A DNA stretch of 64,000 nucleotides, taken from IMG/VR virus record IMGVR_UViG_3300021962_000022, one strand, 5' to 3'. Under the pieces are notes generated by a model. It saw nothing but the letters and a program-made list of their open reading frames with translations, ran no database searches and was not told the DNA's origin. Shown here one piece after another: positions 908 to 47,194 of this stretch (position 1 is the first letter of the stretch; each line of letters opens with the position of its first letter). This stretch comes from a virus (lineage: Duplodnaviria; Caudoviricetes). A program made the position numbers and the translations under genes.

Positions 908-925
908 TTTTATTAACATTTTTTA

Positions 926-3214: not shown

Positions 3215-3225
3215 ATCTTATATCA

Positions 3226-3576: not shown

Positions 3577-3580
3577 ATTT

Positions 3581-3588
3581 CATAAATA
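3581..3588 (-). promoter_or_regulatory. Putative late promoter variant TATTTATG
   Basis: A few nt upstream of the ATG at 3576 (position approximate to +/-1). Confidence 0.5.
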
Positions 3589-3618
3589 TAAAAAATCATA
3601 TTTTATAATAAAGTATTT

Positions 3619-4326
3619 TTAACAACCCATTCCCTCAGTGTAAGGATTACCGTCCACTATACCACTCGTAGCGTAGTAAACAGAACCACCATATTTGAAG
3701 TATCCATTATATGGTGTTGTTAAACTTTGGTTAGTATAAATGGCGCCCGAAACTGATGGGAATTCACCAACCGAACAACTAGTGTATACCGTTATTAATC
3801 CACCAGAACATGTTATTACACCCGGACAAGAACATTGTTGTATTGACCAAGAATTAAATAAACATGATGGTGTTGGGGTTGGGGTTAAAGTTCTTGTTGG
3901 TGTTGGGGTTGGGGTTAAAGTTCTTGTTGGTGTTGGGGTTGGTGTTGGTGTTTTTGATGGTGTAGGAGATGGTGGTGGTGGTGTTGCACTCGGTGTAACA
4001 GATGGGGTCACACTTGGTGTCGGACTTGGACTAACACAAACTGTTTGTACATCGAAACACATTGTGTCATAACATGGGAATGCTTTACTATCGTGAGTAT
4101 AGATATTTTTAATAATATATCTTCCCGTAGTTTCATCAGTCATTTTAATCCAATATTGGGTATCAAAAGACAAACCACTAATCGTTATATTATTTACAGT
4201 TAATCCTGTGTTTAATAAAGTGAAAGACGAATCAATAGTTTCAGGATACGGCGATTCACCAGATTTATATCGAATGGAAAAACTACCGTCCGAAACAATG
4301 TTATATATTTTTACATTTAATCCCAT
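3619..4326 (-). CDS. 235-aa protein: Ig/Fn3-like N-terminal domain, PT linker, Cys-rich C-terminal module
   Basis: ORF track; beta-rich N-terminus ([16 protein letters not shown] is Fn3-like); PTPT linker. Confidence 0.8.
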
Positions 4327-4328
4327 TA

Positions 4329-6155: not shown

Positions 6156-6171
6156 TTATTAATTTTCTATC

Positions 6172-6179
6172 TATAAATA
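6172..6179 (-). promoter_or_regulatory. Putative late promoter motif TATTTATA
   Basis: Exact motif 16 nt upstream of the ATG at 6155. Confidence 0.6.
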
Positions 6180-6199
6180 CTTAAACCATTATTTTATTT

Positions 6200-9100
6200 T
6201 TAACAAACTTCTTCACAACCACAACCGTGTGCCCCACCACAACAAGTTACACCATAAGAGAAACCTGACGTACCACCTAAATTAGGTATTGTATACCATA
6301 CACCTCTGTCGAATACCGCTAAGTACATTACTCTACTTATACATCTACTTTCAGTTGTTGCTGTGGTGTATAATCGTTGAAAGAATTGACCATCACAACA
6401 TTGATAATACATATAAACTTGACCATAATCTGTAATGTCTCGGTCAGTAATATTAATCTCCGTACACTTACAATCACACGCACCTATGACCGATACTGAA
6501 CCAGTCCACGGAAATCCGCCGACGTTAGGTGCTCCACAAGCGCATAAAACTAATTCGTGATTTCCACCATTTGCCTCCCAATAAGCGGGGTCAGACAATG
6601 TTTGGGCATTACCCTGACAATCTGTGTAACTAACAAAGTTCCAATTGTTTAATTGAGTTACTAACCATTCACGACAATCACATGGTGGTGTTGATGAAGG
6701 TGTTGGGGTTGGAGTTGGTGATACACCCGCAGCAGCAGGGGAACTTGATGGTGTTACAGAAGGGGTAACAGATGGAGTTAAAGATGGTGTAACCGAAGGT
6801 GTTGGTGTTCTACTTGGTGTAACAGATGGAGTTAAAGATGGTGTAACACTAGCGGTTCTCGATGGTGTAACCGAACTTGTTGGTGTAACGCTCGGGGTTA
6901 CTGATGGTGTAACTGAAGGTGTAACTGATGGAGTTACGCTGGCAGTTCTTGAAGGGGTAACAGATGGTGTTGGTGGTGGGGATGCTCCCGCTGTTCTACT
7001 TGGTGTAACACTAGCGGTTCTTGATGGAGTTAAAGATGGTGTAACCGAAGGTGTTGGTGTAACACTTGGTGTTCTTGACGGTGTAACACTTGGTGTTATC
7101 GATGGTGTAACACTAGCGGTTCTCGATGGTGTAACGGATGGACAATTTTGAAACGTTTCAAGAATACATTCTTCACAACTACCATAACTTGATGTATATA
7201 TCGGGCCGGTATTTGGTCCAAAGTCATCAAATCTTGCACATAATTGGGCTGATTGTATATAAAACACCGTTCCAATTGCCGTACCAATTGGTACTCTACC
7301 TTGATAAATTGTTGTATCACCAGCACAACATGAAGTAAACACCGCACCTATGTACTGTGGACTTGGTGATGGTGTTACAGAAGACGTTGGTGTTAATGAA
7401 GGTGTAATAGATGGTGTTACTGAACTACTTGGTGTAACTGAAGGTGTAACGGAAGGTGTAACGCTCGATGTTGGTGTCACAGAAGGTGTAACGCTCCGTG
7501 TTGGGTCTGGTGTTCTTGATGGTGTAGGAGTAACAGAAGGTGTAACGCTCGATGTTGGTGTCACAGAAGGTGTAACGCTCCGTGTTGGGTCTGGTGTTAC
7601 TGAACTACTTGGTGTAACTGAAGGTGTTGTACTTGGTGTAATTGAAGGTGTTACAGAACTACTTGGAGTTACAGATGGTGTTCTTGAAGGGGTGATAGAT
7701 GGTGTAACAGATGATGTTGCGGTTACTGATGGTGTTGTACTTGGTGTAATTGAAGGTGTTACAGAACTACTTGGAGTTACTGATGGTGTTGTACTTGGTG
7801 TAATTGAAGGTGTTACAGAACTACTTGGAGTTACAGATGGTGTTGTACTTGGTGTGATAGACGCGGTAACACTTGATGTTGGTGTTAACGACGGAGTGAT
7901 AGAAGGTGTTACAGATGGAGTTCTTGAAGGGGTCAAAGAAGGTGTTCTTGACGGAGTTGCAGTTACTGAACTTGTTGGGGTTGGTGATGGTGTTGGACAG
8001 GTAAATACCGCGTTACAACTTGCACAATCAGCGAATTTTGAACTAGCCAATGTATAGAAAGGATATGCACCATTTGCAATTAAAACAAATGATTGATAAC
8101 ATGTCCCTCCAAATGGATAAATTCCAGGGTTACCAGTTATGTAGTTAAAATCACCCTGTGTCATGTTGATGTTGTAAATATTGTTATCACAACAACTCTG
8201 TGTTTGTACCGACACAATTACAGTTGATGGTGTTACTGTAGGTGTAACTGATGGAGTCACAGAACTACTTGGGGTTACCGAAGGTGTTACAGAAGGTGTA
8301 ACGCTCGATGTTGGTGTTACTGTAGGTGTAACTGATGGAGTCACAGAACTTGTAGGGGTTACGGATGATGTAACGGAAGGTGTAATGCTCGATGTTGGTG
8401 TCACAGAAGGTGTAACGCTCCGTGTTGGGTCTGGTGTTCTTGATGGTGTAGGAGTAACAGAAGGTGTAACGCTCGATGTTGGTGTCACAGAAGGTGTCAC
8501 TGATGGTGTTACACTTGGTGTGACAGAACTTGTTGGGGTAACTGATGAGGTAACCGACGGAGTCACTGAGCTTGTTACCGATGGTGTAACTGAAGGTGTT
8601 ACACTTGGAGTTACTGAAGAAGTAACAGATGGTGTAACGGAACTTGTTGGTGTTACTGATGGTGTTACTGAACTTGTAACCGAAGGTGTTACAGAACTAG
8701 TTGGGGTGACTGAAGGTGTTAGTGATGGGGTAACTGATGCGGTTCTACTTGGTGTAACTGATGGTGTAACAGATGATGTTGGTTCTGGTGTTCTTGATGG
8801 TGTAACAGATGATGTTGGAGTTACAGAAGGTGTTGTACTTGGTGTGATAGAAGGTGTTACGGATGATGTTGCTGTCACTGATGGAGTTACAGAAGGTGTC
8901 ACGGATGGTGTAACAGATGATGTTGGAGTTACAGAAGGTGTTGTACTTGGTGTGATAGAAGGTGTTACGGAACTTGATGGTGTAACGGAAGGTGTTAATG
9001 ATGGTGTAACTGACGGTGTAACACTTGAAGTTGCTGTCACTGATGGAGTTACAGAAGGTGTCACCGATGGAGTAACAGATGATGTTGGTGTTACGGATGG

Positions 9101-12100
9101 TGTTCTACTTGGTGTAATTGACGGAGTTACAGAACTACTTGGAGTTACAGAAGGAGTAACCGATGAAGTGATACTCGGAGTTACTGAAGACGATGGTGTT
9201 ATTGAAGGTGTTGTACTTGGTGTGATAGAAGGTGTTACGGAACTTGATGGTGTAACGGAAGGTGTTAATGATGGTGTAACTGACGGTGTAACACTTGAAG
9301 TTGGTGTAATTGACGGGGTTACCGATGGAGTTACCGATGGGGTAACACTTGATGTCGGTGTAACACTTGGTGTCCTACTTGGTGTAACTGATGGTGTCAC
9401 AGATGAAGTTGCAGTTACTGAAGGTGTTGTACTTGGTGTGATAGAAGCCGTCACAGATGGTGTTACAGAACTACTTGGAGTTACAGAAGGTGTTGTACTT
9501 GGTGTTATTGAAGAAGTTACCGACGGAGTTACAGAACTACTTGGGGTAACTGAAGGTGTTCTCGATGAAGTGACAGAAGGTGTTACAGAAGATGTTGGTG
9601 TAACAGAAGGTGTTACAGAAGGAGTCACGGATGGTGTAACCGAACTACTTGGAGTTACTGATGGTGTTGTACTTGGTGTAAGTGATGGGGTAACAGAACT
9701 TGTAGGAGTAACCGAACTAGTAACACTTGGTGTGAGAGATGGTGTAACCGAACTACTTGGTGTAACTGAAGGTGTTGTACTTGGTGTAAGTGATGGAGTA
9801 ACTGAGCTACTTGGGGTTACAGAAGGAGTAACACTTGGTGTAACTGAGCTCGTAACACTTGGAGTAACTGATGGTGTAACACTTGGTGTAACTGAGCTCG
9901 TAACACTTGGAGTAACTGATGGTGTAACGGAACTACTTGGTGTAACCGAAGGAGTAACAGAACTTGTTACAGAAGGAGTAACAGATGATGTTGCAGTTAC
10001 TGAAGGGGTTACTGAAGGTGTAACTGAAGGTGTTACCGAACTTGTTGCAGTTACCGAAGGGGTTCTTGACGGGGTGACACTCGGTGTAACACTAGAAGTA
10101 GGTGTAACAGATGGAGTAACGGATGGTGTTACTGAACTTGTTATGGATGGTGTTACCGAACTAGTAACTGAAGGAGTAACTGATGGAGTCACACTTGGAG
10201 TTACGGATGATGTTGGTGTTACAGATGATGTCACCGAAGGGGTTATACTCGGTGTAACCGAACTAGTAGGTGTAACGGATGGAGTTACTGATGGTGTAAG
10301 TGATGGTGTAACGGAACTAGTAGATGTTACAGAAGGGGTTACTGATGGTGTAAGTGATGGTGTAACGGAACTAGTAGATGTTACAGAGGGGGTTACTGAA
10401 CTTGTAACACTTGGAGTAACTGAAGACGTTGGTGTTACCGAAGGTGTTACCGAAGGTGTAACCGATGGGGTTACTGAAGAAGTTGGTGTTACTGACGGTG
10501 TTACCGAAGGAGTTACAGAACTTGTTACCGAAGGTGTAACGGAAGGTGTTAAAGATGGTGTTATACTTGGTGTTACTGAAGGTGTTACGGAACTACTTGG
10601 TGTAACACTTGGCGTTCTTGAAGGAGTAACACTTGGTGTAACTGAACTTGTTGGCGTAACTGAACTTGTAACTGACGGGGTTATTGAAGAAGTAACACTT
10701 GGAGTTACGGAACTAGTAACAGATGGAGTGACACTTGGTGTTATAGATGGTGTAACAGAACTTGTGGGTGTTACTGATGGTGTAAGTGATGGAGTAACAG
10801 AAGGTGTTACTGACGATGTCGCGGTTACGGATGGGGTAACAGATGGTGTAAGTGATGGTGTTACCGAACTTGTTGGAGTAACAGATGGTGTAACGGATGG
10901 TGTAACAGAACTAGTAACTGATGGAGTAACCGAACTTGTTACTGAAGGAGTTACACTTGGAGTAATCGATGGAGTTACTGAAGATGTTGGAGTTACAGAA
11001 GGTGTTGTACTTGGTGTAATTGATGGGGTTACAGATGACGTTGCGGTTACGGATGGGGTAACAGATGGTGTAAGTGATGGTGTTACACTTGATGTTACTG
11101 ATGGAGTAACACTTGGTGTTCTTGATGGTGTTATAGATGGTGTAACTGAACTTGTCGGTGTAACTGAACTTGTAACAGATGGTGTGACAGATGGTGTTAC
11201 CGAACTAGTTGCAGTAACCGAAGGAGTAACCGAAGGGGTAACCGACGGAGTAACGGAACTTGTTGGAGTTATAGATGGTGTAACGGAACTAGTAACCGAT
11301 GGAGTTACACTTGATGTTACCGATGGGGTTACACTTGGTGTTACAGAACTTGTTACCGATGGTGTTACTGAACTTGTAACCGAAGGTGTAACAGAACTTG
11401 TAACTGACGGAGTAACAGAAGGTGTTACTGAACTAGTAGGTGTCACTGATGGAGTCACACTTGGTGTTACACTTGGAGTAACAGACGAAGTTGGTGTCAC
11501 AGATGGAGTAACCGATGGTGTTACTGAACTAGTAACCGATGGTGTAACAGACGATGTCACTGATGGAGTCACACTTGGTGTTACACTTGGAGTAACAGAC
11601 GAAGTTGGTGTCACAGATGGAGTAACCGATGGGGTTATACTTGGTGTTACCGAACTTGTTGGAGTTATAGATGGTGTAACGGAACTAGTAACCGATGGAG
11701 TTACACTTGATGTTACCGATGGGGTTACACTTGGTGTTCTTGACGGTGTTATAGATGGTGTCACGCTCGAAGTTGGTGTAACAGATGGAGTTACAGAACT
11801 TGTTACCGAAGGTGTTACAGATGATGTTGGTGTTACTGATGGTGTTACGGAACTTGTAACCGATGGAGTTACAGACGAAGTAACGGATGGAGTCACTGAC
11901 GGAGTAACCGATGGTGTAACCGAACTTGTTGCGGTAACACTTGGTGTCACACTTGAAGTAACGGATGGAGTCACTGAACTTGTTGGTGTTACCGATGGTG
12001 TTACTGATGGAGTTACGCTTGATGTCACTGAAGGTGTTACCGATGGGGTAACTGAAGGTGTTCTTGATGGTGTAACTGATGGTGTTACCGAACTTGTTGG

Positions 12101-15100: not shown

Positions 15101-18100
15101 ACTCGAAGTAGGTGTCACTGATGGTGTCACTGATGGTGTAACCGATGGTGTAACTGATGAAGTAGGTGTAACCGATGAGGTAACTGACGGTGTAACAGAA
15201 CTAGTGACCGATGGAGTTACAGAACTTGTTACCGAAGGTGTAATCGAAGGAGTTACCGACGGTGTCACAGACGAAGTTGGTGTTACAGACGGAGTTACAC
15301 TTGGTGTTACAGACGGAGTTACAGACGAAGTTGGTGTTACAGACGGAGTTACACTTGGTGTTACAGACGGAGTTACACTCGATGTTACAGATGGAGTAAC
15401 AGATGGAGTGACAGAACTAGTAACTGATGGAGTCACACTCGATGTTGGGGTAACTGAAGGAGTCACGGATGGGGTAACAGAACTTGTTACCGAAGGTGTT
15501 ACTGACGAAGTTGGTGTTACGGATGGAGTTACCGAAGGGGTAACAGAACTTGTTACCGATGGTGTTACAGAACTAGTAACTGAAGGTGTTAATGATGGTG
15601 TTATTGATGGTGTAACTGATGGAGTGACGCTCGAAGTAGGGGTTACTGATGAGGTGACAGAAGGTGTTACCGAACTAGTAACTGATGGTGTAACTGATGG
15701 GGTTACTGAAGGTGTTACAGAACTAGTAACCGATGGTGTCACACTTGATGTTGGAGTTACTGATGGTGTTGTACTTGGTGTAAGTGATGGGGTTACCGAT
15801 GATGTAGGTGTTACTGAAGGTGTTACCGATGGAGTAACACTTGAAGTAACTGACGGTGTAACGGATGGTGTTACACTTGGGGTAACACTCGATGTTACAG
15901 ATGGGGTCACAGAACTAGTTGGTGTAACAGACGATGTAACCGACGGGGTTATAGAAGGTGTAACTGATGGGGTTACAGAACTAGTAACTGATGGGGTTAC
16001 AGAACTTGTTACACTTGGTGTTACTGATGAGGTTGGAGTCACCGACGGAGTAACCGAAGGAGTAATCGAAGGTGTTACTGAACTAGTTGGTGTGACAGAA
16101 GATGTAACTGATGGTGTAACAGAGGGTGTAACTGATGATGTTGGGGTTACTGATGAAGTTACCGATGGGGTAACAGAACTTGTTACTGAAGGAGTAACCG
16201 AAGAAGTTGGTGTTACGGATGGGGTGACCGAACTAGTGACAGAAGGTGTTACCGATGGAGTGACACTTGAAGTAACTGACGGTGTAACTGAACTACTTGG
16301 GGTAACACTTGGGGTTACTGATGAAGTTACCGATGGTGTAACACTCGATGTCGGAGTTACTGATGGAGTAACAGAACTTGTTACTGACGGAGTTACTGAT
16401 GGTGTAACAGAAGGAGTAACACTCGGAGTTACAGATGATGTAACAGATGGTGTTACTGAACTTGTAGGGGTTACTGAAGGTGTTAGTGAAGCGGTTACCG
16501 ATGGGGTAACTGAACTTGTTGGTGTTACCGATGCGGTAACGGAAGGTGTGATAGATGGAGTAACACTTGGTGTCACCGATGAGGTTACGGATGGGGTAAC
16601 TGATGGTGTTCTACTCGGTGTTACTGACGGTGTAACAGATGATGTTGGTGTTACGGATGGTGTTACACTTGGGGTTACAGATGGTGTTACCGAACTAGTT
16701 GCAGTAACCGAAGGAGTAACTGAAGGTGTTACCGAAGGTGTGACAGAACTTGTAGGAGTAACCGATGAGGTAACAGATGGGGTCACTGATGAAGTTACTG
16801 ATGGAGTAACGCTCGATGTTGGTGTTACTGAAGATGTTACACTTGGTGTTAAGGATGGTGTGACTGATGATGTTACTGAAGGAGTTACTGATGGTGTTAT
16901 ACTTGGGGTTACAGATGATGTAACGGAAGGTGTTACTGACGATGTTGGGGTTACGCTCGGAGTTACGGATGCGGTAATAGATGGTGTTACAGAACTAGTG
17001 ACAGATGGTGTAACACTTGGTGTAACCGATGAGGTAACAGATGGGGTAACTGAACTACTTGGTGTAACGCTTGGTGTCCTCGATGGGGTAATTGATGGTG
17101 TAACAGATGAAGTTGGTGTAACTGACGGAGTAATCGAACTTGTTACAGATGGAGTTATTGAACTTGTTACAGATGGAGTTACAGAACTTGTTACCGAAGG
17201 TGTTAATGATGGTGTTACGGAACTAGTTGGTGTTACTGATGGTGTAAGTGATGGTGTGACAGATGGTGTGATAGATGGTGTAACCGAATTAGTGACTGAT
17301 GGTGTAACGGATGGTGTTACGGAACTCGAAACTGAAGGTGTTAATGATGGTGTAACTGAAGGTGTTAATGACGCGGTTACGGACGGTGTTAAACTTGGTG
17401 TTACTGAAGGTGTTGGTGTACTTGTTGGCGTTGGTGATGGTAACATCGTATAATCAATGTCACATGAAGGTGCTGGTGTAGGGGTTACTGATGGTGTTAA
17501 AGACGGAGTAACCGATGGAGTTACAGAACTAGTTGGTGTAACGCTTGGTGTGACAGATGGAGTTACTGATGGGGTGACAGAACTAGTAATAGAAGGTGTT
17601 ACCGATGAGGTTACACTTGGTGTTACTGAACTTGTAGGTGTAATTGATGGTGTAACGGAACTAGTGACCGAAGGTGTAACCGATGGTGTAACGGAACTAG
17701 TTGGGGTGACTGACGGAGTTCTACTTGGTGTTAGTGATGGTGTAATAGAAGGAGTTACACTTGGAGTAACTGAACTTGTTGGAGTAACACTCGGGGTTAC
17801 AGATGATGTAACAGAAGGTGTTACTGAACTTGTGACAGAGGGTGTTACTGATGGGGTAACAGATGGTGTTACACTTGGTGTTACTGAACTTGTAGGGGTT
17901 ACTGATGGTGTTCTAGATGTCGTAACGGAAGGGGTTACGGAACTAGTTGGTGTTACGGAACTAGTAACAGATGGTGTAACCGACGGCGTTACTGAACTAG
18001 TAACTGACGGAGTAACACTTGGGGTTTCACTTGGAGTAACCGAAGGTGTTTCACTTGGTGTTATCGACGGTGTAACCGAACTAGTAGGTGTAACCGAAGG

Positions 18101-21100
18101 TGTTTCACTTGGAGTGATTGACGGTGTTACAGAACTAGTTAGAGTAATGGAAGGTGTTATACTTGGGGTTACCGATGATGTTACTGAGGGAGTTATAGAT
18201 GGGGTTATACTCGGTGTAACCGATGCGGTGACAGATGGTGTAACTGAACTCGTGGGTGTAACTGATGGAGTTACCGATGCGGTGACAGATGGTGTAACTG
18301 AACTAGTAACACTTGGAGTAACGGATGCTGTAACTGAAGGTGTTATACTTGGTGTAACAGAACTAGTTGGGGTTACAGATGGAGTTTCACTTGGTGTTAT
18401 CGACGGTGTTATACTTGGTGTAACAGACGCAGTAACTGATGGAGTTATACTTGGTGTAACAGACGCAGTAACAGATGGTGTTACCGAACTAGTGGGTGTA
18501 ACCGAAGGTGTTTCACTTGGAGTTATACTTGGTGTAACAGAACTAGTGACTGATGGTGTAACACTTGCGGTAACGGAAGGTGTCACTGATGGTGTAACCG
18601 ATGCGGTAACTGATGGTGTTATACTTGGTGTAACGGAACTAGTAACAGATGGTGTCACCGAAGGTGTAACAGATGATGTCGGTGTAACACTTGGTGTTTC
18701 ACTTGGAGTTATACTTGGTGTAACTGATGATGTCGGTGTAACACTTGGTGTTTCACTTGGAGTTATACTTGGTGTAACTGACGGAGTAACACTTGATGTT
18801 GGAGTTACAGATGGGGTTATACTTGGAGTTACCGATGCAGTAACCGACGGTGTAACCGAACTAGTTGGTGTAACAGATGGAGTTTCACTTGGTGTGATAC
18901 TTGGTGTAACGGAACTAGTAACAGATGGGGTTATACTTGGAGTTACCGATGCAGTAACCGACGGTGTTACTGAACTAGTTGGGGTTACAGATGGAGTTTC
19001 ACTTGGTGTTATCGACGGTGTTACGGAACTGGTTGGTGTAACTGAACTAGTAACACTAGGTGTTATACTTGGTGTAACTGAACTAGTAGGTGTAACACTT
19101 GGTGTAACGCTTGGTGTTACGGATGAAGTAACCGAAGGTGTAACTGAACTAGTCGGTGTAACACTTGGTGTTTCACTAGGTGTAACCGATGCGGTAACAG
19201 ATGGTGTTACTGAACTAGTAGGTGTAACACTTGGTGTTTCACTTGGTGTGATTGATGGTGTTATACTTGGTGTAACGGATGATGTTGGGGTTACAGATGG
19301 AGTTTCACTTGGAGTTATACTTGGAGTAACCGACGGTGTAACTGAACTAGTTGGTGTAACAGATGGAGTTTCACTTGGTGTGATACTTGGAGTTATACTT
19401 GGAGTAACTGATGATGTTGGTGTGATAGATGGTGTAACTGAACTAGTAACTGATGGAGTTACAGAACTTGTTGGGGTTATAGACGGAGTTTCACTAGGAG
19501 TGATTGACGGTGTTATACTTGGTGTAACTGATGAAGTAACAGATGGGGTTACTGATGGTGTTACTGAACTAGTGACACTTGGAGTAACTGAACTAGAGGG
19601 TGTAACCGAAGGTGTTGCACTTGGTGTTATACTTGGTGTAACTGATGATGTTGGTGTGACTGATGGAGTTACAGAACTAGTAACTGACGGAGTAACACTT
19701 GATGTTGGTGTAACACTTGGTGTTTCACTTGGAGTGATTGATGGTGTTATACTTGGTGTAACGGAACTAGTAACACTAGGTGTTATACTTGGTGTAACTG
19801 AACTAGTAACAGATGGTGTTACCGATGGTGTTTCACTTGGTGTTATACTTGGTGTAGCAGATGGTGTTACTGAACTAGTAGGTGTAACACTTGGTGTTTC
19901 ACTTGGTGTAACGGAACTAGTAACAGATGGTGTTATTGAAGGAGTTACAGAACTAGTGACTGATGGAGTTACTGAACTTGTCACACTTGGTGTAAGTGAT
20001 GGGGTAACAGAACTTGTTGGAGTTACGGAAGGTGTGATTGATGGTGTAACTGAAGGTGTTCTTGAGGGTGTTAAACTTGGTGTTACAGATGAACTTACAG
20101 ATGGAGTAACCGAACTTGTAACCGAAGGGGTTACGGAACTAGTTGGTGTTACGGAACTAGTAACAGATGGTGTTATTGAAGGAGTTACGGAAGGTGTTAA
20201 TGATGGTGTTACAGATGATGTTACAGAAGGGGTTACCGAAGGTGTTACAGAAGGTGTAACTGATGACGTTGGTGTTACGGAACTAGTAATCGATGGGGTT
20301 ACACTTGAAGTAACAGATGGTGTAACTGAACTAGTAACTGAAGGTGTTAATGATGGTGTTCTTGATGGTGTAACAGAAGGAGTTACGGATGAGGTTGGTG
20401 TAACCGATGAGGTAACCGATGGTGTAACCGAACTAGTAACTGAAGGGGTTACCGAGCTCGTTACTGATGGAGTAACACTTGAAGTTACAGAAGGAGTTAC
20501 GGAAGGTGTTATACTCGAGGTTGGGGTTACTGACGGTGTCAATGATGGTGTAACGGAACTAGTGACCGAAGGTGTAACCGATGGTGTAACTGATGGAGTG
20601 ACACTTGGTGTAATCGATGGGGTAACAGATGATGTTGGGGTGACTGACGGTGTTATACTTGGTGTAATTGATGGGGTTACCGATGATGTAGGTGTTACTG
20701 AAGGTGTTACCGATGGAGTGACACTTGAAGTAACTGACGGTGTAACGGATGGTGTTACACTTGGAGTCAATGAACTTGTAACTGATGGTGTTACAGATGA
20801 TGTCGGAGTTACTGATGGAGTAACAGAGGGTGTAACAGAACTAGTAACTGATGGTGTTACTGATGGTGTTAGTGATGGTGTAACTGAACTTGTAACAGAA
20901 GGTGTTACCGATGGTGTAACTGAACTAGTGACCGAAGGTGTAACCGATGGAGTTACAGACGAAGTTGGGGTTACACTTGGTGTGATTGACGGGGTAACCG
21001 AAGGGGTTACAGAACTAGTAACACTTGGAGTTACGGAACTGGTAACAGATGGTGTTACCGATGGAGTTACAGATGATGTTGGTGTTACTGAAGGGGTTAC

Positions 21101-22195
21101 TGAACTTGTTATCGATGGTGTTAATGATGGGGTTACTGAACTTGTTGGTGTTACAGAGCTTGTAACTGACGGTGTAACACTTGAAGTAATTGATGGTGTA
21201 ACACTCGGAGTTACGGAACTTGTTGGAGTTACAGATGGTGTGACTGATGGTGTGATAGATGGTGTAACCGAACTAGTAGGTGTAACTGATGGAGTTACTG
21301 AAGCGGTTATAGATGGAGTCACTGAACTCGTAACAGATGGTGTAACGGAACTTGTTGGGGTTATAGATGGTGTTAAAGACGGAGTAACCGATGGTGTAAC
21401 TGATGGAGTTACTGAACTTGTTGGTGTAACAGAACTAGTAACAGATGGTGTTACTGAAGAAGTTGGTGTAACAGATGTGGTAACCGATGGTGTTACTGAA
21501 GGTGTAACCGACGAAGTTGGTGTTACAGACGGAGTCTCACTTGGAGTTAACGACGGTGTTAAACTTGGTGTTACTGAAGAAGTTGGTGTAACAGATGTGG
21601 TAACCGATGGTGTGATAGAAGGAGTAACTGATGGTGTAACACTTGGAGTAACTGAACTTGTTGGTGTTACACTTGGAGTCTCTGAAGGTGTAATAGATGG
21701 AGTTACAGAGCTAGTGGGTGTGATTGATGGTGTAATCGAGCTAGTTGGAGTTACAGAAGGTGTAACTGATGGTGTAACATCTGGTGTTCTTGTTGGTGTA
21801 ACCGATGGGGTTGGGGTAATTGAACTCGTTGGAGTAACTGATGGAGTCACTGATGGAGTTGAAGTTACTGATGGGGTTGTTGTGACAGTTGGTGTTACTG
21901 AAGGTGTGGTTGTGACAGTTGGTGTAACAGGAGGTGTACTTTGTGGTGTTGGCGTTAAACTTGGTGTAACAGAAGGTGTAATTGAAGGTGTTGGGGATGG
22001 ACAATTAATTGCCGCGTAACATGTTTTGTCATGCGATGGAAAATAAACTGAATAGGTTCCTAAGTAATAAGTTGTGTCGTAATAATACGGCATCACAACA
22101 GTACCTAAATTAATGGTACCGCCAGTACAGGGATAAAATGTGATAACACCAATTTCACCATCAAAATTACCTGTGTTTATCTTTATTAATGCCAT
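6200..22195 (-). CDS. 5331-aa giant mucin-like (TPSV/TSSV repeat) protein with N-terminal domain and C-terminal Cys-rich modules
   Basis: Uninterrupted 16-kb ORF with plausible non-repetitive N- and C-termini, a dedicated upstream promoter, and synonymous variation concentrated at wobble positions of this frame. Confidence 0.85.
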   Translation of the reverse strand: MALIKINTGNFDGEIGVITFYPCTGGTINLGTVVMPYYYDTTYYLGTYSVYFPSHDKTCYAAINCPSPTPSITPSVTPSLTPTPQSTPPVTPTVTTTPSVTPTVTTTPSVTSTPSVTPSVTPTSSITPTPSVTPTRTPDVTPSVTPSVTPTSSITPSITPTSSVTPSITPSETPSVTPTSSVTPSVTPSVTPSITPSVTTSVTPTSSVTPSLTPSLTPSETPSVTPTSSVTPSVTPSVTTSVTPTSSVTPSVTSSVTPTSSVTPSVTPSVTPSLTPSITPTSSVTPSVTSSVTPSITASVTPSVTPTSSVTPSITPSVTPSVTPTSSVTPSVTPSITSSVTPSVTSSVTPTSSVTPSLTPSITSSVTPSVTPTSSVTPSVTPSVTSSVTPSVTSSVTPSVTPSITPSVTPTSSVTPSVTPSVTSSVTPSVTPSVTSSVTPSLTPSVTPSVTSSVTPSVTPSVTPTSSVTPSVTSSLTPSVTPSVTPSVTSSVTPSVTPSVTPTSSVTPSITPSITPSVTPTSSVTPSITPSVTPSVTPSVTPSVTSSVTPSLTPSVTPTSSITPSVTPSVTSSVTPSVTSSVTPSVTSSVTPSVTSSVTPTSSVTPSVTPSRTPSLTPSVTSSVTPSVTSSVTPSITSSVTPTSSVTPSVTPSVTPSVTSSVTPSLTPSVTPSITPSVTSSVTPTSSVTPSVTSSVTPSVSSSVTPSLTPSRTPSVTPSITPSVTPTSSVTPSLTPSVTSSVTPSVTSSVTPSITPSVTSSVTPSETPSVTPTSSVTPSATPSITPSETPSVTPSVTSSVTPSITPSVTSSVTPSITPSITPSETPSVTPTSSVTPSVTSSVTPSVTPTSSVTPSITPSATPSVTPSSSVTPSVTSSVTPSVTPSVTSSVTPSITPSITPSETPSITPTSSVTPSVTSSVTPSITPTSSVTPSITPSITPSETPSVTPTSSVTPSVTPSITPSETPSVTPTSSVTPSITPSITPSETPSVTPTSSVTPSVTASVTPSETPSVTPTSSVTPSVTSSVTPSVTPSVTPTSSVTPSITPSVTSSVTPTSSVTPSITPSETPSVTPTSSVTPSVTASVTPSITPSVTSSVTPSITPSETPSVTPTSSVTPSVTASVTPSITPSVTPTSSVTPSVTPSITPSETPSVTPTSSVTPSITPSETPSVTPTSSVTPSVTPSVTSSVTPSITPSVTASVTPSVTPSVTASVTPSVTSSVTPSITPSETPSVTPTSSVTPSVTASVTPSITPSVTASVTPSITPSITPSETPSVTPTSSVTPSITPSVTASVTPSVTSSVTPSVTASVTPSVTPTSSVTPSVTASVTPSITPSITPSVTSSVTPSITPSITLTSSVTPSITPSETPSVTPTSSVTPSITPSETPSVTPSETPSVTPSVTSSVTPSVTPSVTSSVTPTSSVTPSVTTSRTPSVTPTSSVTPSVTPSVTPSVTPSVTSSVTPSVTSSVTPSVTPTSSVTPSVTPSITPSLTPSRTPSVTPTSSVTPSVTPSVTSSVTPSITPTSSVTPSVTSSVTPSITSSVTPSVTPSVTPSVTPTSSVTPSVTPSLTPSVTPTPAPSCDIDYTMLPSPTPTSTPTPSVTPSLTPSVTASLTPSVTPSLTPSVSSSVTPSVTPSVTNSVTPSITPSVTPSLTPSVTPTSSVTPSLTPSVTSSVTPSVTSSITPSVTSSITPSVTPTSSVTPSITPSRTPSVTPSSSVTPSVTSSVTPSVTPSVTSSVTPSITASVTPSVTPTSSVTPSVTSSVTPSITPSVTPSVTSSVTPSLTPSVTSSVTPTSSVTPSVTSSVTPSVTSSVTPTSSVTPSVTPSVTPSVTATSSVTPSVTPSVTPSVTPTSSVTPSVTPSRTPSVTPSVTSSVTPSVTPSITPSVTASVTPTSSVTPSVTASLTPSVTPTSSVTPSVTSSVTPSVTPSVTPSVTPSVTSSVTPSVTPTSSVTPSVTSSVTPSVTPSSSVTPSVTSSVTPSVTPSVTSSVTPSVTPTSSVTPSVTSSVTPSVTSSVTPTSSVTPSVTPSVTSSVTPTSSVTPSITPSVTPSVTPTSSVTPSVTSSVTPSVTSSVTPSVTPSITPSVTSSVTPTSSVTPSVTSSVTPSVTPSVTPSVTSSVTPSVTPSVTPTSSVTPSLTPSTTPSVTPTSSVTPSVTSSVTPSVTPSVTPSVTSSVTPSVTSSVTPTSSVTPSVTPSITPSLTPSVTSSVTPSVTSSVTPSVTPSVTPTSSVTPSVTSSVTPSVTPSVTPTSSVTPSVTSSVTPSVTPSVTSSVTPSVTPSVTPSVTPTSSVTPSVTPSVTPSVTPTSSVTPSVTPSITPSVTSSVTPSVTSSVTPSVTSSVTPTSSVTPSVTPSVTPSVTPTSSVTPSVTSSVTPTSSVTPSVTPSVTPTSSVTPSVTPSVTPTSSVTPSVTPSVTPTSSVTPSVTPSVTPTSSVTPSVTPSVTPTSSVTPSVTSSVTPSVTPSVTSSITPSITPSRTPSVTPTSSVTPSVTSSVTPSVTPSVTPSVTSSVTPSVTSSVTPTSSVTPSVTPSVTSSVTPSVTPSVTSSVTPSLTPSVTPTSSVTPSVTPSRTPSVTPTSSVTPSVTPSVTSSVTPSVTSSITPSVTPSVTSSVTPTSSVTPSVTSSVTPSLTPSVTPSVTSSVTPSVTPSVTPTSSVTPSVTSSVTPSVTPSVTSSVTPSVTPSVTPSVTPTSSVTPSVTPSVTPSVTPSVTPSVTSSVTPSVTPSVTPTSSVTPSVTSSVTPSLTPSVTPSVTSSVTPSVTSSVTPTSSVTPSVTPSRTPSVTPSVTSSITPSVTPSITPSVTPTSSVTPSVTSSVTPSITPSVTSSVTPSVTPSVTSSVTPTSSVTPSVTSSVTPSITPSVTSSVTPSITPSVTPSVTPTSSVTPSVTSSVTPSITPTSSVTPSVTASVTPSVTPSVTSSVTPSVTPSVTPTSSVTPSVTPSVTPSVTPTSSVTPSVTPSVTPSVTSSVTPSVTPSVTASVTPTSSVTPSVTSSVTPSVTPSVTPSVTSSVTPSVTPSVTPTSSVTPSITPSITPSVTSSVTPSVTSSVTPSVTPSVTPTSSVTPSVTPSVTPSVTPSVTPSVTSSVTPSVTPSVTPTSSVTPSITPSRTPSVTSSVTPSVTSSVTPSVTASVTPTSSVTPSITPSVTPSVTPTSSVTPSVTSSVTPSVTSSVTPSVTASVTPSVTPSVTPTSSVTPSVTSSVTPSVTPTSSVTPSVTPSRTPSVTPSVTSSVTPSVTSSVTPSVTPTSSVTPSVTSSVTPSVTSSVTPSVTSSVTPSVTPSVTPTSSVTPSATPSITPSVTSSVTPSVTSSITPSVTPSVTPTSSVTPSLTPSVTPSVTPTSSITPSVTSSVTPSVTSSVTPTSSVTPSVTPSRTPSVTPSVTPSVTSSVTPSVTPSVTPTSSVTPSVTSSVTPSVTATSSVTPSVTPSVTPSVTSSVTPSVTSSVTPSVTPTSSVTPSVTSSVTPSVTPTSSVTPSITPSRTPSVTPSVTSSVTPSVTSSVTPSITPTSSVTPSITPSVTPSVTPTSSVTPSVTPSVTPSVTSSVTPSVTSSVTPSVTPSVTPTSSVTPSVTPSVTPSVTPTSSVTPSVTPSVTSSVTPSVTSSVTPSVTSSVTPSVTPSVTSSVTPSVTSSVTPSITPTSSVTPSVTPSVTPSVTATSSVTPSVTPSVTSSVTPTSSVTPSITPSRTPSVTPSVTSSVTPSLTPSVTPSVTATSSVTPSITPSTTPSVTPTSSVTPSITPSVTPSVTSSVTPSVTSSVTPSVTPSVTPTSSVTPSLTPSVTPSVTATSSVTPSVTPSLTPSVTPTSSVTPSITPSVTPSVTSSVTPSVTSSITPSVTSSVTPTSSVTPSVTPSRTPSVTPSSSVTPSVTPSITPSLTPSVTPSVTSSVTPSVTPSVTPTSSVTPSVTPSVTPSVTPTSSVTPSVTSSVTPSVTSTSSVTPSLTPSVTPSVTSTSSVTPSLTPSVTPSVTPTSSVTPSITPSVTSSVTPTSSVTPSVTPSVTPSVTSSVTPSITSSVTPSVTPSVTPTSSVTPSVTPSRTPSVTATSSVTPSVTPSVTPSVTATSSVTPSVTSSVTPSVTPSSSVTPSVTPSVTSSVTPSVTPSVTPSVTSSVTPSVTPSVTPSSSVTPSLTPSTTPSVTPSSSVTPSLTPSVTSSVTPTSSVTPSLTPSTTPSVTPSSSVTPSVTPSVTPSVTPTSSVTPSVTSSRTPSVTPSSSVTPSVTSSITPSTTPSVTPSSSVTPSVTASITPSTTPSVTATSSVTPSVTPSRTPSVTPTSSVTPSVTPSVTPSITPTSSVTPSVTPSLTPSVTPSSSVTPSITPSTTPSITPSSSVTPSITSSVTPSVTPSSSVTPSITPSRTPSVTPTSSVTPSVTPSVTPSVTATSSVTPSVTPSLTPSVTPSSSVTPSITPSTTPSVTPTSSVTPSVTPSVTPSVTATSSVTPSITPSTTPSVTPTSSVTPSRTPEPTSSVTPSVTPSRTASVTPSLTPSVTPTSSVTPSVTSSVTPSVTPTSSVTPSVTSSVTPSVTPSVTPSVTSSVTPSVTSSVTPTSSVTPSVTPSVTPSVTPTSSVTPSVTPTPSRTPDPTRSVTPSVTPTSSITPSVTSSVTPTSSVTPSVTPTVTPTSSVTPSVTPSVTPSSSVTPSVTPTVTPSTVIVSVQTQSCCDNNIYNINMTQGDFNYITGNPGIYPFGGTCYQSFVLIANGAYPFYTLASSKFADCASCNAVFTCPTPSPTPTSSVTATPSRTPSLTPSRTPSVTPSITPSLTPTSSVTASITPSTTPSVTPSSSVTPSITPSTTPSVTPSSSVTPSITPSTTPSVTATSSVTPSITPSRTPSVTPSSSVTPSITPSTTPSVTPSSSVTPDPTRSVTPSVTPTSSVTPSVTPTPSRTPDPTRSVTPSVTPTSSVTPSVTPSVTPSSSVTPSITPSLTPTSSVTPSPSPQYIGAVFTSCCAGDTTIYQGRVPIGTAIGTVFYIQSAQLCARFDDFGPNTGPIYTSSYGSCEECILETFQNCPSVTPSRTASVTPSITPSVTPSRTPSVTPTPSVTPSLTPSRTASVTPSRTAGASPPPTPSVTPSRTASVTPSVTPSVTPSVTPSVTPTSSVTPSRTASVTPSLTPSVTPSRTPTPSVTPSLTPSVTPSVTPSSSPAAAGVSPTPTPTPSSTPPCDCREWLVTQLNNWNFVSYTDCQGNAQTLSDPAYWEANGGNHELVLCACGAPNVGGFPWTGSVSVIGACDCKCTEINITDRDITDYGQVYMYYQCCDGQFFQRLYTTATTESRCISRVMYLAVFDRGVWYTIPNLGGTSGFSYGVTCCGGAHGCGCEEVC
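8220..22000. repeat. About 13.8-kb low-complexity coding repeat (3-5 aa units: TPSV, TSSV, TPSI, TPSE, TPSR, TPST)
   Basis: Direct reading; repetitive at protein level, degenerate at DNA level. Confidence 0.95.
14853..15062. repeat. Five near-identical 42-bp tandem copies ([14 protein letters not shown])
   Basis: gaagtaggtgtcactgatggtgtaaccgatggtgtaac(tgat/actc) at 14853, 14895, 14937, 14979 and 15021. Confidence 0.9.
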
Positions 22196-22235: not shown

Positions 22236-22264
22236 AATATACTCAATTTTTAGGGGTTTGTCAA
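22236..22264 (-). promoter_or_regulatory. Sigma70-like promoter TTGACA-N17-TATATT upstream of the giant repeat gene
   Basis: -35 at 22264-22259, exact 17-nt spacer, -10 at 22241-22236, 40 nt before the ATG. Confidence 0.7.
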
Positions 22265-47192: not shown

Positions 47193-47194
47193 AG

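Follow-up and report, generated by a model that had tools for sequence, protein, structure and literature searches.

What does a tailed phage (Duplodnaviria; Caudoviricetes) do with a 16-kb gene whose product consists over most of its length of almost only four amino acids? The question is raised by the IMG/VR record IMGVR_UViG_3300021962_000022, of which a stretch of 64,000 nucleotides, called the window throughout, was analysed. An initial annotation had proposed a mucin-like filament attached to the virion. The gene belongs to an uncultured freshwater/estuarine T4-like jumbo myovirus with a genome of roughly 300 kb and 33% GC. The features of the locus are summarized in Table 1.

Table 1. 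Features of the giant open reading frame and of its surroundings in the window.
Feature	Position	Strand	Basis or remark
Downstream fibre-cluster gene, 762 aa	926..3214	(-)	aa 102-170 matches the profile of the giant protein's C-terminal subdomain
Downstream fibre-cluster gene, 235 aa, same bead-and-linker style as the 608-aa gene	3619..4326	(-)	sequence reading
Downstream fibre-cluster gene, 608 aa, Cys modules and PT/ST linkers	4329..6155	(-)	phrog_15511 match
Giant ORF P0001	6200..22195	(-)	5,331 aa plus stop, ATG start; unmodified mass 519 kDa, pI 5.5
C-terminal domain, aa 5164-5331, 16 Cys, all-beta, proposed distal binding tip	6203..6706	(-)	AF2 pLDDT 89.8
Alternating linker, aa 5028-5163	6707..7114	(-)	dipeptide-position analysis
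Cys-rich module M2, aa 4942-5027, 6 Cys	7115..7372	(-)	recognisable counterparts in G001 and G005
Alternating (Thr/Ser-X) linker, aa 4739-4941	7373..7981	(-)	98% Thr/Ser at every second residue
Cys-rich module M1, aa 4657-4738, 6 Cys	7982..8227	(-)	no Pfam or PHROG match
Array run 2, aa 1593-4656, (Thr/Ser-X)n	8228..17419	(-)	99.8% T/S over 1,528 alternate positions
Island, aa 1570-1592, contains APSCDIDYTMLPSP, one Cys	17420..17488	(-)	only site of a dipeptide phase break
Array run 1, aa 67-1569, (Thr/Ser-X)n	17489..21997	(-)	T 53.9% and S 45.7% at alternate positions, measured over aa 72-1574
N-domain, aa 1-66, small Ig-like beta sandwich, proposed virion-docking adaptor	21998..22195	(-)	AF2 pLDDT 87.2
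Candidate sigma-70-like promoter, TTGACA, 17 nt, TATATT, in the 93-nt gap 5' of the ATG	22236..22264	(-)	consensus match 11/12
Upstream 1,413-aa gene, conserved left neighbour of the slot	22289..26530	(-)	about 89% aa identity in relatives
gp6-like baseplate wedge gene, 610 aa	35418-37250	(-)	phrog_6, E 3e-22
gp25-like baseplate wedge gene, 184 aa, heads the co-oriented block with the gp6-like gene	37252-37806	(-)	phrog_261, E 2.5e-18

Extent and Coding Strand of the Giant ORF

The complete protein is composed of 28.6% Ser, 25.7% Thr, 18.1% Pro and 17.3% Val. Between residues 67 and 4656 (4,590 aa, 86% of the protein's length) Thr, Pro, Ser and Val reach 94.9%, and a 23-aa island at residues 1570-1592 is the sole break. 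The single ORF with a stretch of about 4,600 such residues described in the initial annotation was thus recovered. The same holds for the reported absence of a signal peptide and of membrane segments, as the N-terminus forms a beta strand of a folded domain and the highest 19-residue Kyte-Doolittle mean was 1.17. We are aware that the length of an ORF by itself is no proof of coding here, since the antisense frame is nearly open as well (8181 to 22019, with one stop only); opposite-strand genes of 2,231 and 1,147 aa were called in this region by JGI and ENA. The minus-strand sense frame was identified as the coding one because it occupies the space between the neighbouring genes exactly, carries conserved terminal domains with confident folds, and encodes serine at the alternating positions by both codon families (TCN, 603; AGY, 114). 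Moreover, the relative G001 keeps the sense frame intact over 5,472 codons, and none of its other long frames yields a piece of more than 703 aa. We conclude that the giant ORF is a genuine gene. Standard gene callers place such arrays on the wrong strand, and for this reason the proteins are mostly absent from protein databases.

A 16-kb array might also be an inflated or mis-joined repeat assembly, or an annotation artefact that is not translated as one protein. Short-read assemblies frequently break within the array, none of the reads or contigs examined crosses the full 16 kb, only short Logan pieces represent the 5' half of the array in this strain, and about half of the placed Logan contigs fit two positions inside it. 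In the assembly of the relative G002 a frameshift divides the ORF into 4,267 and 1,144 aa, and the opposite-strand gene calls point in the same direction. However, the longest exact repeat measures 111 nt, every 127-mer is unique and just ten repeats reach 60 nt. Furthermore, 8.1 and 5.4 kb of the array recur at >99% in two other assemblies, JGI contig L180 (99.35%, colinear with window positions 14326..1995) and ENA contig L181 (99.16%, colinear with 11623..2091), and an assembly artefact is therefore unlikely. Logan contigs from four runs covered 30 of 30 bins without indels, with a depth of about half to twice that of the flanks in two near-identical runs; as such contigs are unable to span the array, their holes and breaks carry no evidence. 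For a relative, 12 IMG/VR contigs were base-for-base identical over the first 9.9 kb of the ORF, and three shared the identical 5,472-aa frame. Together with the conserved, confidently folded termini and the mixed serine codons at constrained positions, these data render an artefact of either kind far-fetched.

Giant versions were found syntenic in at least 25 loci. Comparing lengths in related phages, syntenic ORFs of 5,472, 2,940 and 2,737 aa were observed. The phage stretch adjoining and including the ORF start was detected in 20 runs from 11 studies, covering lakes and an estuary.

The Array Is a Strict Dipeptide Polymer

Thr or Ser occupies 99.6-99.8% of the alternate positions of the array, which is a strict (Thr/Ser-X)n polymer with a single phase break; the phase is intact over 1,503 and 3,057 residues. 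In run 1 the X residues were P (38%), V (33%), S (13%) and I (7%), measured over aa 72-1574. Within run 2 an exceptionless run extends over 2,884 residues, and the corresponding strict run in G001 over 3,440 aa. The array is an uncharged spacer; its 4,590 aa include 4 Asp, 20 Glu and 24 Arg, and Lys is missing altogether. The same Thr/Ser rule was observed in relatives at 100% (1,258/1,258) of the alternate positions in G005 and at 99.6% in G001, with different X residues (P, N or V in G001 versus P, V or S in the window) and with not one array 30-mer common to the window and G001. The island motif APSCDIDYTMLPSP is kept in G001 (aa 758-780) and in L100, and missing from G005. Strict alternating runs of at least 24 aa were found in only six ORFs of the 288-kb G001 genome, four of them in this fibre cluster.

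Repeat units of even length would keep the dipeptide phase without selection, if they are gained and lost as whole units.

The N-Domain Defines a Family of Phage Proteins

The N-terminal domain of about 65 aa noted initially corresponds to residues 1-66, for which AF2 predicted a six-stranded Ig-like sandwich at a pLDDT of 87.2. Fold searches returned generic Ig/FN3-like matches alone (Z at most 6.3). Prediction of an N-domain homotrimer (3 copies, alignment A2) gave a score of 0.00, which is uninformative on the oligomeric state either way.

Using profile A3 (alignments A2 and A3), at least 188 uncharacterised phage proteins were found to carry the N-domain at their start, and this profile defines here an unnamed phage N-domain adhesin/fibre family. 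Invariant residues are I18, P22, G25-G26-T27, N29, G31, P36-Y37, Y39, Y43, G46, Y48, F52 and C59. Among the 120 matches listed, the motif begins at residue 22-24 in 115, and an alternating linker with a median of 48 aa (family range 0 to 320 aa) is present in 108. The median protein length in the family is 302 aa, and the spacer of 4,590 aa exceeds the median linker about 100-fold. The tips are diverse and comprise PA14 plus GLEYA (about 41 of the 120 listed), discoidin (F5/8-C), LamG_3 and the phage tail Collar domain (PF07484). Pelagibacter phage HTVC112P has a putative tail protein that one PA14-type tip resembles, and a second N-domain paralogue in G001 has a discoidin-like tip that also matches a PHROG tail protein family. 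In L187 the same slot is taken by P0022, a linker-less N-domain protein of 224 aa which follows the same series of six genes (for 1373, 592, 274, 422, 306 and 1413 aa) as the giant ORF. The giant protein shares with this family the N-domain, the order of an alternating linker followed by an exchangeable tip, and the slot.

The C-Terminal Modules Diverge Fast

The two halves of the C-terminal domain (about residues 1-78 and 79-168) aligned separately in the fold search and were therefore read as two beta subdomains; together with M1 and M2 this makes the four Cys-rich modules counted initially a fair number. In a search of 1.84 billion proteins only about 15 true relatives of the C-terminal domain were found, and the matches P0006, P0008, P0015, P0016 and P0019 of the exhaustive search were dismissed as unrelated repeat proteins. 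Fold matches were weak and generic (Foldseek against PDB, E >0.1; VIA Z at most 3.9), with C2-type, lectin and jelly-roll folds. A phage cluster in the ESM Atlas resembles the domain at TM 0.52, whereas the feature-based Atlas search scored below a useful level. The BFVD search with the C-terminal model gave no match at E 0.001 or below, all terminal modules stayed without a Pfam family when the threshold was relaxed to E 1, and the peptide patterns used to scan IMG/VR for the C-terminal domain were too specific to find a match. For both terminal domains, searches of Pfam, PHROGs, INPHARED (tblastn), PDB and BFVD gave no characterised tail-fibre family and no solved structure that matched. With fold matches this generic and weak, no function can be read from either domain.

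Compared with G001, identity is 91% for the N-domain and about 89% for the upstream neighbour, but only 37% for the C-terminal tip (37-41% in close relatives), which is the pattern of a receptor-binding protein. The window, G001 and G005 carry different sets of modules. Pairwise BLASTP of every module in the cluster gave no significant pairs. A motif 'Y-x-D-C-x-G', judged by eye to be shared, was borne out for one module of the 762-aa protein only; this module (aa 102-170) matched the C-terminal subdomain profile at E 8e-8 and 22 bits (set of 17 modules).

The Gene Lies in the Tail Fibre and Baseplate Block

The placement of the gene by baseplate genes was confirmed, as the gp25-like, gp6-like, tail sheath, tail tube and baseplate hub genes all lie on its strand. 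The latter three are located at 60.7-63.9 kb, and every gene is on the minus strand. Besides the gp25-like and gp6-like genes, six unannotated ORFs lie upstream of the giant ORF. The 1,413-aa neighbour gave no family match and no PDB sequence match; the same phmmer search against PDB sequences found no match for the 1,377-aa neighbour. No obvious Shine-Dalgarno motif precedes the ATG of the giant ORF. The phrog_15511 family matches on linker where this could be checked (probably so for the 608-aa protein) and is thus silent on function. In the 762-aa gene the linker length varies across near-identical strains (712, 762 and 763 aa).

A tail of about 100 nm had been deduced from a 648-aa 'tape measure'; this protein has no PHROG or Pfam match, and the tail estimate is therefore not supported. 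In the isolated phages of INPHARED nothing was found by megablast with 25 kb of the window or by tblastn with the C-terminal domain, the N-domain, the 1,413-aa and 608-aa neighbours and P0168. The sheath alone gave matches, the best with Microcystis phage Mel-JY01 (42%). The freshwater 'Moraphage' jumbo phages (PMC12619734) resemble the phage by traits only, namely the freshwater habitat, genomes of 200-307 kb, a gp6/sheath core, four core glycosyltransferase groups and the lack of a recognisable tape measure.

Comparison With Known Systems

Animal mucins share with the giant protein a Pro/Thr/Ser-rich centre flanked by Cys-rich domains, and dense O-glycans are plausible for both. To our knowledge, mucin PTS domains show no strict two-residue period. 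The giant protein displays strict (Thr/Ser-X)n alternation instead, and it has neither the VWD, C8, TIL, CK and SEA domains (Pfam) nor the signal peptide of mucins, so the label 'mucin-like' was abandoned. Judged by sequence, the array is closer to the serine-rich-repeat and Ser-Asp stalks of Gram-positive bacteria and to the alternating Thr-X linkers of environmental surface proteins.

In serine-rich-repeat domains Ser alternates mostly with Ala, Val or Thr, and dedicated glycosyltransferases glycosylate them before secretion (PMC6973325). Fap1, GspB, PsrP and the proteins of Limosilactobacillus reuteri resemble the giant protein in their very long alternating hydroxy-residue domain, variable repeat number and attached binding region. 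Unlike them, the giant protein lacks an aSec signal peptide, an AST domain and an LPXTG anchor, and it ends in CGCEEVC; its domains follow the opposite order, with C-terminal binding modules, X is mostly Pro or Val, it is encoded by a virus, and GtfA/GtfB-type priming enzymes were not found in its relatives. In the staphylococcal Ser-Asp repeats nearly each Ser is glycosylated by dedicated enzymes, which shields the repeat from protease (PMC3794999). These proteins (ClfA, SdrC/D/E; enzymes SdgA/SdgB) likewise place a strict dipeptide repeat beside a ligand-binding domain, whereas the phage spacer is uncharged, offers many more repeat positions and is accompanied by family-2 glycosyltransferases. 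Giant secreted proteins of environmental bacteria also have Thr/Ser at every second residue with variable X, for instance P0025 (666 aa), P0030 (632 aa) and P0035 (382 aa) with alternating linkers and signal-peptide-like N-termini. In contrast to the array, their linkers of up to about 670 aa lie between large folded domains of cellular proteins.

Among phage fibres and receptor-binding proteins (T4 gp12, gp37, tail-collar fibres), similarities concern the position in the block, the conserved N-terminus, the fast-evolving, swappable C-terminus, and the Collar domains or lectin-like tips of N-domain relatives. The shaft, however, is a low-complexity spacer rather than a folded trimeric rod, and the giant protein has no sequence or fold match to characterised fibre families. 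Within the limited literature set searched, no description of such a phage protein was found.

A Phage Glycan Cluster May Modify the Array

The search for glycosyltransferases beyond the window was positive. Walking along a contig that matches the strain of the window at 99.35%, a phage cluster of 16 glycan genes was reached about 29 kb downstream. It encodes several family-2 glycosyltransferases, a UDP-GlcNAc 2-epimerase, an NAD epimerase/dehydratase and two FkbM methyltransferases, and is also present in relatives including G001. For the relatives G001, G003 and G005, PF09318 (Glyco_trans_A_1/DUF1975), which would indicate priming enzymes of the GtfA/GtfB type, was absent and matches to family-1 glycosyltransferases (PF00534) stayed under the cut-off. 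Neither GT-D nor a prolyl-4-hydroxylase-type oxygenase (PF13640), searched by analogy to extensins and arabinogalactan proteins, was found in relatives. The simplest explanation for Thr/Ser recurring invariably at every second position is a dense array of O-glycosylation sites, and by analogy to the bacterial systems these residues may be modified by the phage glycan cluster. We are also aware that glycosyltransferase clusters of jumbo phages have been read as systems for capsular polysaccharide modification (PMC7824862) or DNA modification (PMC12619734), which makes the link to the giant protein circumstantial. A precedent for glycans on virion proteins is provided by mycobacteriophages, which, as cited in PMC12619734 (Freeman et al. 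2023), are glycosylated on short C-terminal extensions of capsid or tail-tube subunits and, in that account, not on a fibre spacer of several thousand residues.

Proposed Function and Alternative Explanations

The position in the tail and baseplate block and the conserved N-terminus with a divergent, swapped C-terminus agree with a phage fibre or receptor-binding protein. In our judgement the protein is probably an adhesin of the tail-fibre kind, with a spacer that has lengthened about 100-fold to become a flexible tether; its virion attachment, glycosylation, ligand and mechanics are inferred. The Ig-like N-domain would dock the protein on the tail or baseplate. The spacer, expanded in this lineage from the family median, would act as a long, uncharged, flexible tether with Thr/Ser at every second residue, and the distal tip would be swappable, lectin-like in most relatives and made of Cys-rich modules here. 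The initially proposed order of an N-terminal anchor, a long spacer and distal tips agrees with the conserved N-domain, the divergent tips and the 224-aa protein in the same slot. Its length of 1.1-1.4 um stands as a contour length but not as reach, for which a worm-like-chain estimate gave an r.m.s. value of 40-180 nm for a flexible chain. The fast-evolving modules would thus be held tens to hundreds of nm off the virion, and at about 1.1-1.6 um if the chain were taut. Such a tether might enlarge the capture zone, or let the tip pass a thick capsule or slime layer to the first reversible contact. The glycan cluster would modify the array in the cytoplasm of the infected cell, as cytosolic glycosyltransferases do with serine-rich-repeat adhesins before export. 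The more far-reaching version, a 'fishing line' on the virion whose roughly 2,300 Thr/Ser sites form a glycosylation code for the phage's own cytoplasmic glycan cluster, is conceivable, though we lean against it.

Phage fibres are usually trimers, and the array might instead form an ordered filament, extended and beta-like or multi-chain, with a Thr/Ser face and a Pro/Val face, semi-rigid and truly micron-long. The unbroken dipeptide phase would suit such a structure, and with X mostly Pro, Val or Ile in this strain an extended chain would be two-faced. However, one third of the X positions in G001 are Asn, so conservation does not extend to a hydrophobic face; with Pro taking 37-44% of the X positions, the hydrogen bonding of a regular sheet should be disfavoured, and the linkers of the family vary freely in length, as spacers rather than shafts would. 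We consider an ordered filament unlikely.

Improbable as well is that the protein serves environmental adhesion to particles, exopolymer or colony slime, as proposed for the adherence of phages to mucus, or forms a glycosylated protective coat. The very large, uncharged, hydroxyl-rich spacer, the frequent lectin-like tips in the N-domain family and the wide occurrence of the phage in lakes and an estuary would fit this role. But the gene lies within a tail-fibre block, and its tip diverges far faster than the neighbours (37% versus about 89%) with modules swapped among relatives, the usual signature of an arms race over host receptors.

The protein might also be non-structural, expressed late and set free by lysis or kept in the cell, and could be a soluble decoy or glue masking receptors on debris or neighbours. 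The gene's own promoter-like site and the cost per particle of a chain of 519 kDa would suit this reading. The gene is, however, co-stranded within the fibre and baseplate block, and 115 of the 120 listed proteins, members with a Collar domain among them, have the N-domain right at their start, as fits a docking adaptor better; we regard a non-structural protein as quite improbable.

Implications

The probable tail-fibre-like adhesin described here belongs to a large, unannotated family of phage adhesins, with at least 188 members, built of an adaptor, a (Thr/Ser-X)n spacer and a lectin-like tip. It offers a concrete candidate substrate for the recurrent glycosyltransferase clusters of jumbo phages, whose targets are debated. 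Adsorption would proceed by a half-megadalton polymer tether with exchangeable tips rather than by a folded rod tens of nm long, which would widen the range of known forms of phage adsorption organelles. If the 'fishing line' were true, it would be a viral counterpart of the bacterial serine-rich-repeat adhesins and, measured against the size of the particle, possibly among the longest appendages of any virion. The length of the spacer, which spans 0 to about 4,800 aa in relatives, would then be evolvable, tuning the reach to the thickness of capsule or slime. The grammar of adaptor, spacer and tip could help to predict receptor-binding proteins in uncultured aquatic phages.

Architecture of the Giant Protein and the Alternation Rule of Its Spacer

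All genes of the window are located on the minus strand. The giant ORF has an ATG start 93 nt past the stop of an upstream 1,413-aa gene, and its stop lies 44 nt ahead of the start of the next gene. Shorter array-type stretches separate the C-terminal domain and the Cys modules. AlphaFold modeled the N-domain with a pLDDT of 87.2 and the C-terminal domain with 89.8. A hydrophobic segment was not found in the giant protein (maximum 19-residue Kyte-Doolittle mean of 1.17), which bears out the initial annotation in its statement that a transmembrane segment is missing. GC content was 0.42–0.46 over the giant ORF versus 0.31–0.35 elsewhere in the window, with a strong GC skew, both because of the amino acid composition. 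In the N-domain alignment A2, C59 was invariant and C23 and C65 were both absent from two distant homologues (L154). This joint loss suggests disulfide pairing of the two residues in the subgroup that has them.

Features of the window in window coordinates, or in residues (aa) of the giant protein.
Feature	Position	Strand	Remarks
Giant ORF	6200..22195	-	5,331 codons
N-domain	aa 1-66	-	globular
Array	aa 67-4656	-	4,590 residues, Thr/Pro/Ser/Val 94.9%
Island within array	aa 1570-1592 (17420-17488)	-	23 aa
M1	aa 4657-4738	-	6-Cys module
M2	aa 4942-5027	-	6-Cys module
C-terminal domain	aa 5164-5331	-	16 Cys
Antisense frame	8181-22019	+	open for about 4,600 codons
Most regular array stretch	14841-15147		42-nt period, 7.3 copies, 87% matches
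608-, 235- and 762-aa genes, downstream of giant	926-3214 (762-aa gene)	-	Cys-rich beads on PT/ST linkers, like giant
gp25-like and gp6-like baseplate wedge	35.4-37.8 kb	-	PHROG
Replication/nucleotide block	37859-47192	-	splits the two tail/baseplate blocks
2,007-aa ORF	47447-53470	-	
1,613-aa ORF	53787-58628	-	
648-aa ORF	58657-60603	-	
Tail sheath, tail tube, baseplate hub	60.7-63.9 kb	-	PHROG

The array had been called mucin-like for its Pro/Thr/Ser composition. Its defining trait is instead a hydroxyl at every second residue. Thr and Ser occupied the alternate positions to 99.6% in run 1 (751 positions) and to 99.8% in run 2 (1,528 positions), and the longest exception-free alternating run comprised 2,884 residues. 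At the X positions Pro (37–38%), Val (33–39%) and Ser (13–16%) were found besides some Ile, Leu, Ala, Glu, and Arg. Successive V/I/L/A/M residues lay an even number of positions apart in 1,032 of 1,036 cases, at distances from 2 up to 14 residues and most often of 4, 6, or 8. The spacer carries nearly no charge (4 Asp, 20 Glu, 24 Arg, and no Lys). Relatives followed the same rule with different X residues. Thr/Ser filled 1,258 of 1,258 alternate positions in G005; in the related contig G001 Thr accounted for 97.5% and Ser for 2.1%, with Pro (42%), Asn (33%), and Val (17.5%) at X. Window and G001 arrays had no 30-mer in common; the upstream neighbors of the giant gene showed approximately 89% protein identity. 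As the rule was kept while X changed, the conserved trait is the hydroxyl side chain at every second residue. The common units VTPS, VTSS, and VTPTSS are all of even length, so gain or loss of whole units would keep the phase without selection. Against such a selection-free phase stands the fact that the array DNA is heavily diverged, yet no single-codon indel survived anywhere. The strict dipeptide polymer is the main new observation on the array.

The dipeptide phase shifts solely at the island APSCDIDYTMLPSP, which contains one Cys. The island was conserved in the giant ORF of G001 (L166, aa 758–780) and in a further relative (L100), at very different distances to the N-terminus, and absent from a 2,940-aa homologue. 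It might serve as a hinge, cleavage site or docking site, or provide an interchain disulfide.

With its dipeptide repeats the giant protein resembles bacterial stalk adhesins. It does not belong to the SRRP, Sdr, or mucin families, whose defining features (export signals, anchors, flanking domains, or priming enzymes) are missing here. Among environmental bacteria, giant secreted proteins also contain alternating Thr/Ser-X linkers, of up to approximately 670 aa in the sample examined. Thus, the linker type is not new; scale and viral setting are. A limited literature search found no prior description of such a phage protein.

Coding Strand, Frame and Assembly of the Giant ORF

In low-complexity DNA long open frames come cheap. 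The antisense frame of the array is interrupted by a single stop (17454–17456); hence the length of the giant ORF alone is little proof of coding. On two contigs of near-identical strains the JGI and ENA gene callers placed antisense “genes” of 2,231, 1,147, and 235 aa (L180 1–6977; L181 3–4274), and on the true strand no more than a 380-aa C-terminal stub. Due to such wrong-strand calls giant-type proteins are likely under-represented in protein databases. Strand and reading frame are settled by four lines of evidence. For both terminal domains AlphaFold gave confident models, and both are conserved in relatives. Serine at the constrained alternate positions was encoded by 603 TCN and 114 AGY codons, and the use of both codon families indicates that the amino acid, rather than the DNA, is what selection acts on. 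In G001 the sense frame was unbroken over 5,472 codons, with other long frames in pieces of at most 703 aa. Finally, the giant ORF exactly fills the gap between its neighboring genes.

Assembly inflation of the array is unlikely. The array DNA is degenerate, with a longest exact direct repeat of 111 nt, just ten repeats reaching 60 nt, and all 127-mers unique. The JGI contig (L180) was colinear with window 14326..1995 at 99.35% and the ENA contig (L181) with 11623..2091 at 99.16%. Logan contigs from four runs covered 30 of 30 bins without indels, and in two near-identical runs depth was about half to twice that of the flanks. The first 9.9 kb of a relative’s ORF were identical in twelve IMG/VR contigs, and the 5,472-aa frame was the same in three. 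As a caution, no single read or contig spans the whole 16 kb of the window strain. In the assembly of one relative, G002, a frameshift splits the giant ORF into 4,267 and 1,144 aa (L168 216–13016 and 12947–16378), which may reflect faulty assembly or genuine variation. By coordinate arithmetic the JGI contig ends at approximately 14,870 in the window, inside the most regular array stretch, the likeliest place of assembly trouble.

The Phage and Its Tail Genes

PHROG matches indicated a contractile-tail phage. The replication/nucleotide block encodes the large and small subunits of ribonucleotide reductase, a DnaB-like helicase, an exonuclease, a UvsX-like recombinase, SSB, and a starvation-inducible regulator-like protein. 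The nearest isolates for the sheath were Microcystis phage Mel-JY01 (42%) and Flavobacterium phage immuto (41%); beyond the sheath no isolated phage matched the window in the sequences searched. IMG/VR contains hundreds of related freshwater contigs, the longest of which, G001, comprises 288 kb (estimated 92% complete, 33.5% GC). A stretch beside and including the giant ORF start was found in 20 sequencing runs of 11 studies from lakes and an estuary. The “moraphages” described in 2025, for which 25 genomes are published, are freshwater jumbo phages of 200–307 kb that are predicted to infect Bacteroidota, share a gp6/sheath core and four core glycosyltransferase groups, and lack a recognizable tape measure; a giant-type protein is not mentioned in that paper (PMC12619734). 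The window phage may be a candidate member of this lineage, in which case freshwater Bacteroidota would be candidate hosts.

Two more very large ORFs of the tail module, of 2,007 and 1,613 aa, flank a gp25-like gene. Neither had a PHROG match, and Pfam gave nothing significant for the 2,007-aa ORF. The 648-aa ORF, named tape measure in the initial annotation, had no PHROG or Pfam match. Located after the tube and hub genes, it could fill that role; the tail length derived from it is an estimate of that annotation only.

A Family of Putative Adhesins Sharing the N-Domain

The N-domain was 91% identical in G001. Identity of the C-terminal domain was 37% in G001 and 41% in G005, and module sets were unequal between relatives. 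A profile search with the N-domain yielded at least 188 proteins of 120–2,000 aa, all metagenomic and all annotated “hypothetical protein.” Among the 120 matches listed, with a median length of 302 aa, the motif started at residue 22–24 in 115, and in 108 a Thr/Ser-X linker (median 48 aa, maximum 320 aa) followed straight after the N-domain. Pfam tips of the listed matches were PA14+GLEYA (about 41 of 120), F5/8 type C, Laminin_G_3, phage tail Collar, and DUF4832/DUF4874. PA14+GLEYA, F5/8 type C and Laminin_G_3 are carbohydrate-binding or lectin-like folds. One PA14-type tip resembled a “putative tail protein” of Pelagibacter phage HTVC112P (30% identity, E 3e-5).

The slot of the giant gene is conserved. 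In another phage the linker-less P0022 (224 aa) directly follows the same series of 1373/592/274/422/306/1413-aa genes as the giant gene does, and more distant relatives carry 325- and 329-aa versions. The length comparison in related phages that had been proposed earlier thus spans 224 to 5,472 aa at syntenic or nearby loci (224, 325/329, 2,737, 2,940, 5,331, and 5,472 aa). The giant protein is the extreme member of a large family of putative phage adhesins. A second N-domain paralogue of G001, P0058 (308 aa), combines a 68-aa linker with a discoidin-like tip that falls just under the Pfam threshold, and also matches a PHROG “tail protein” family.

Strict alternating runs of at least 24 aa occurred in six ORFs only of G001, namely the giant, the three genes just downstream, P0058, and a beta-propeller protein. 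In the window one bead of the 762-aa protein matched the profile of the giant’s C-terminal subdomain. This protein measured 762, 712, and 763 aa among the window and near-identical strains (>99% DNA identity; L180, L181 and a further contig), showing that PT/ST linker length is polymorphic within populations.

A Phage-Encoded Glycan Cluster

The search for glycosyltransferases recommended in the initial annotation returned matches in the relatives and a cluster on a contig of the window strain. Relatives had five to seven glycosyltransferase family 2 matches each (E ≤0.001). The G001 operon (153,713–165,822) comprises about 15 co-oriented genes, including an NAD-dependent epimerase/dehydratase, two FkbM methyltransferases, at least four family-2 glycosyltransferases, and a UDP-GlcNAc 2-epimerase. 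In the window strain the same cluster, here of 16 genes, was reached by a walk along the JGI contig that matches the window at 99.35%. It lies approximately 29 kb downstream of the giant’s stop (L186 1–12747; L185 17035–20693), directly adjoined by thioredoxin and glutaredoxin genes. A sigma-70-type factor and a ClpP-like protease are encoded between the fiber genes and the cluster. G001 carries a further glycosyltransferase at 46,108–47,328 (phrog_7162). The case for the cluster as modifier of the giant protein is circumstantial. Glycosyltransferase clusters of jumbo phages have been read as capsular polysaccharide modification systems (PMC7824862) and as DNA modification (PMC12619734), and no priming enzymes of the kind that characterizes serine-rich-repeat systems turned up in the relatives.

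G001 also carries a cluster of 23 tRNA genes (573–5473; L189), including Thr-UGU, Ser-UGA, Pro-UGG, and Val-UAC. The four are expected to read ACA, TCA, CCA, and GTA, the top or near-top codons for the four main residues of the window array (for Val, GTA is almost level with GTT). As tRNAs for most amino acids are present, the set is not specific to the giant gene.

Proposed Function

Adaptor-spacer-tip modularity, the location in the tail-fiber block, a conserved adaptor with a rapidly diverging tip, and a phage-encoded glycan cluster were established. We read the giant protein as working in the manner of a tail fiber or receptor-binding protein. The N-domain would dock it onto the tail, the baseplate or the neck. 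The chain of uncharged (Thr/Ser-X)n would serve as a flexible tether, and the Cys-rich tips would bind a host surface glycan in a first, reversible contact. Given their even Cys counts (6, 6, and 16), the tips are plausibly disulfide-bonded once outside the cell. Thr/Ser of the array may be O-glycosylated in the cytoplasm of the infected cell, which would stiffen the chain and shield it from proteases, by analogy to Ser-Asp repeats (PMC3794999) and serine-rich-repeat adhesins (PMC6973325).

At 0.25–0.36 nm per residue the computed contour length was 1.15–1.65 μm. Using a worm-like chain, polymer theory estimates an r.m.s. end-to-end distance of approximately 40–80 nm at a persistence length of 0.5–2 nm, and of 125–180 nm at 5–10 nm, which a densely glycosylated chain might reach. 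The micron length proposed initially is a contour length, against an estimated typical reach of 40–180 nm. On this estimate the appendage would resemble a cloud-forming thread more than a micron-long rod, and could still be pulled out to a micron.
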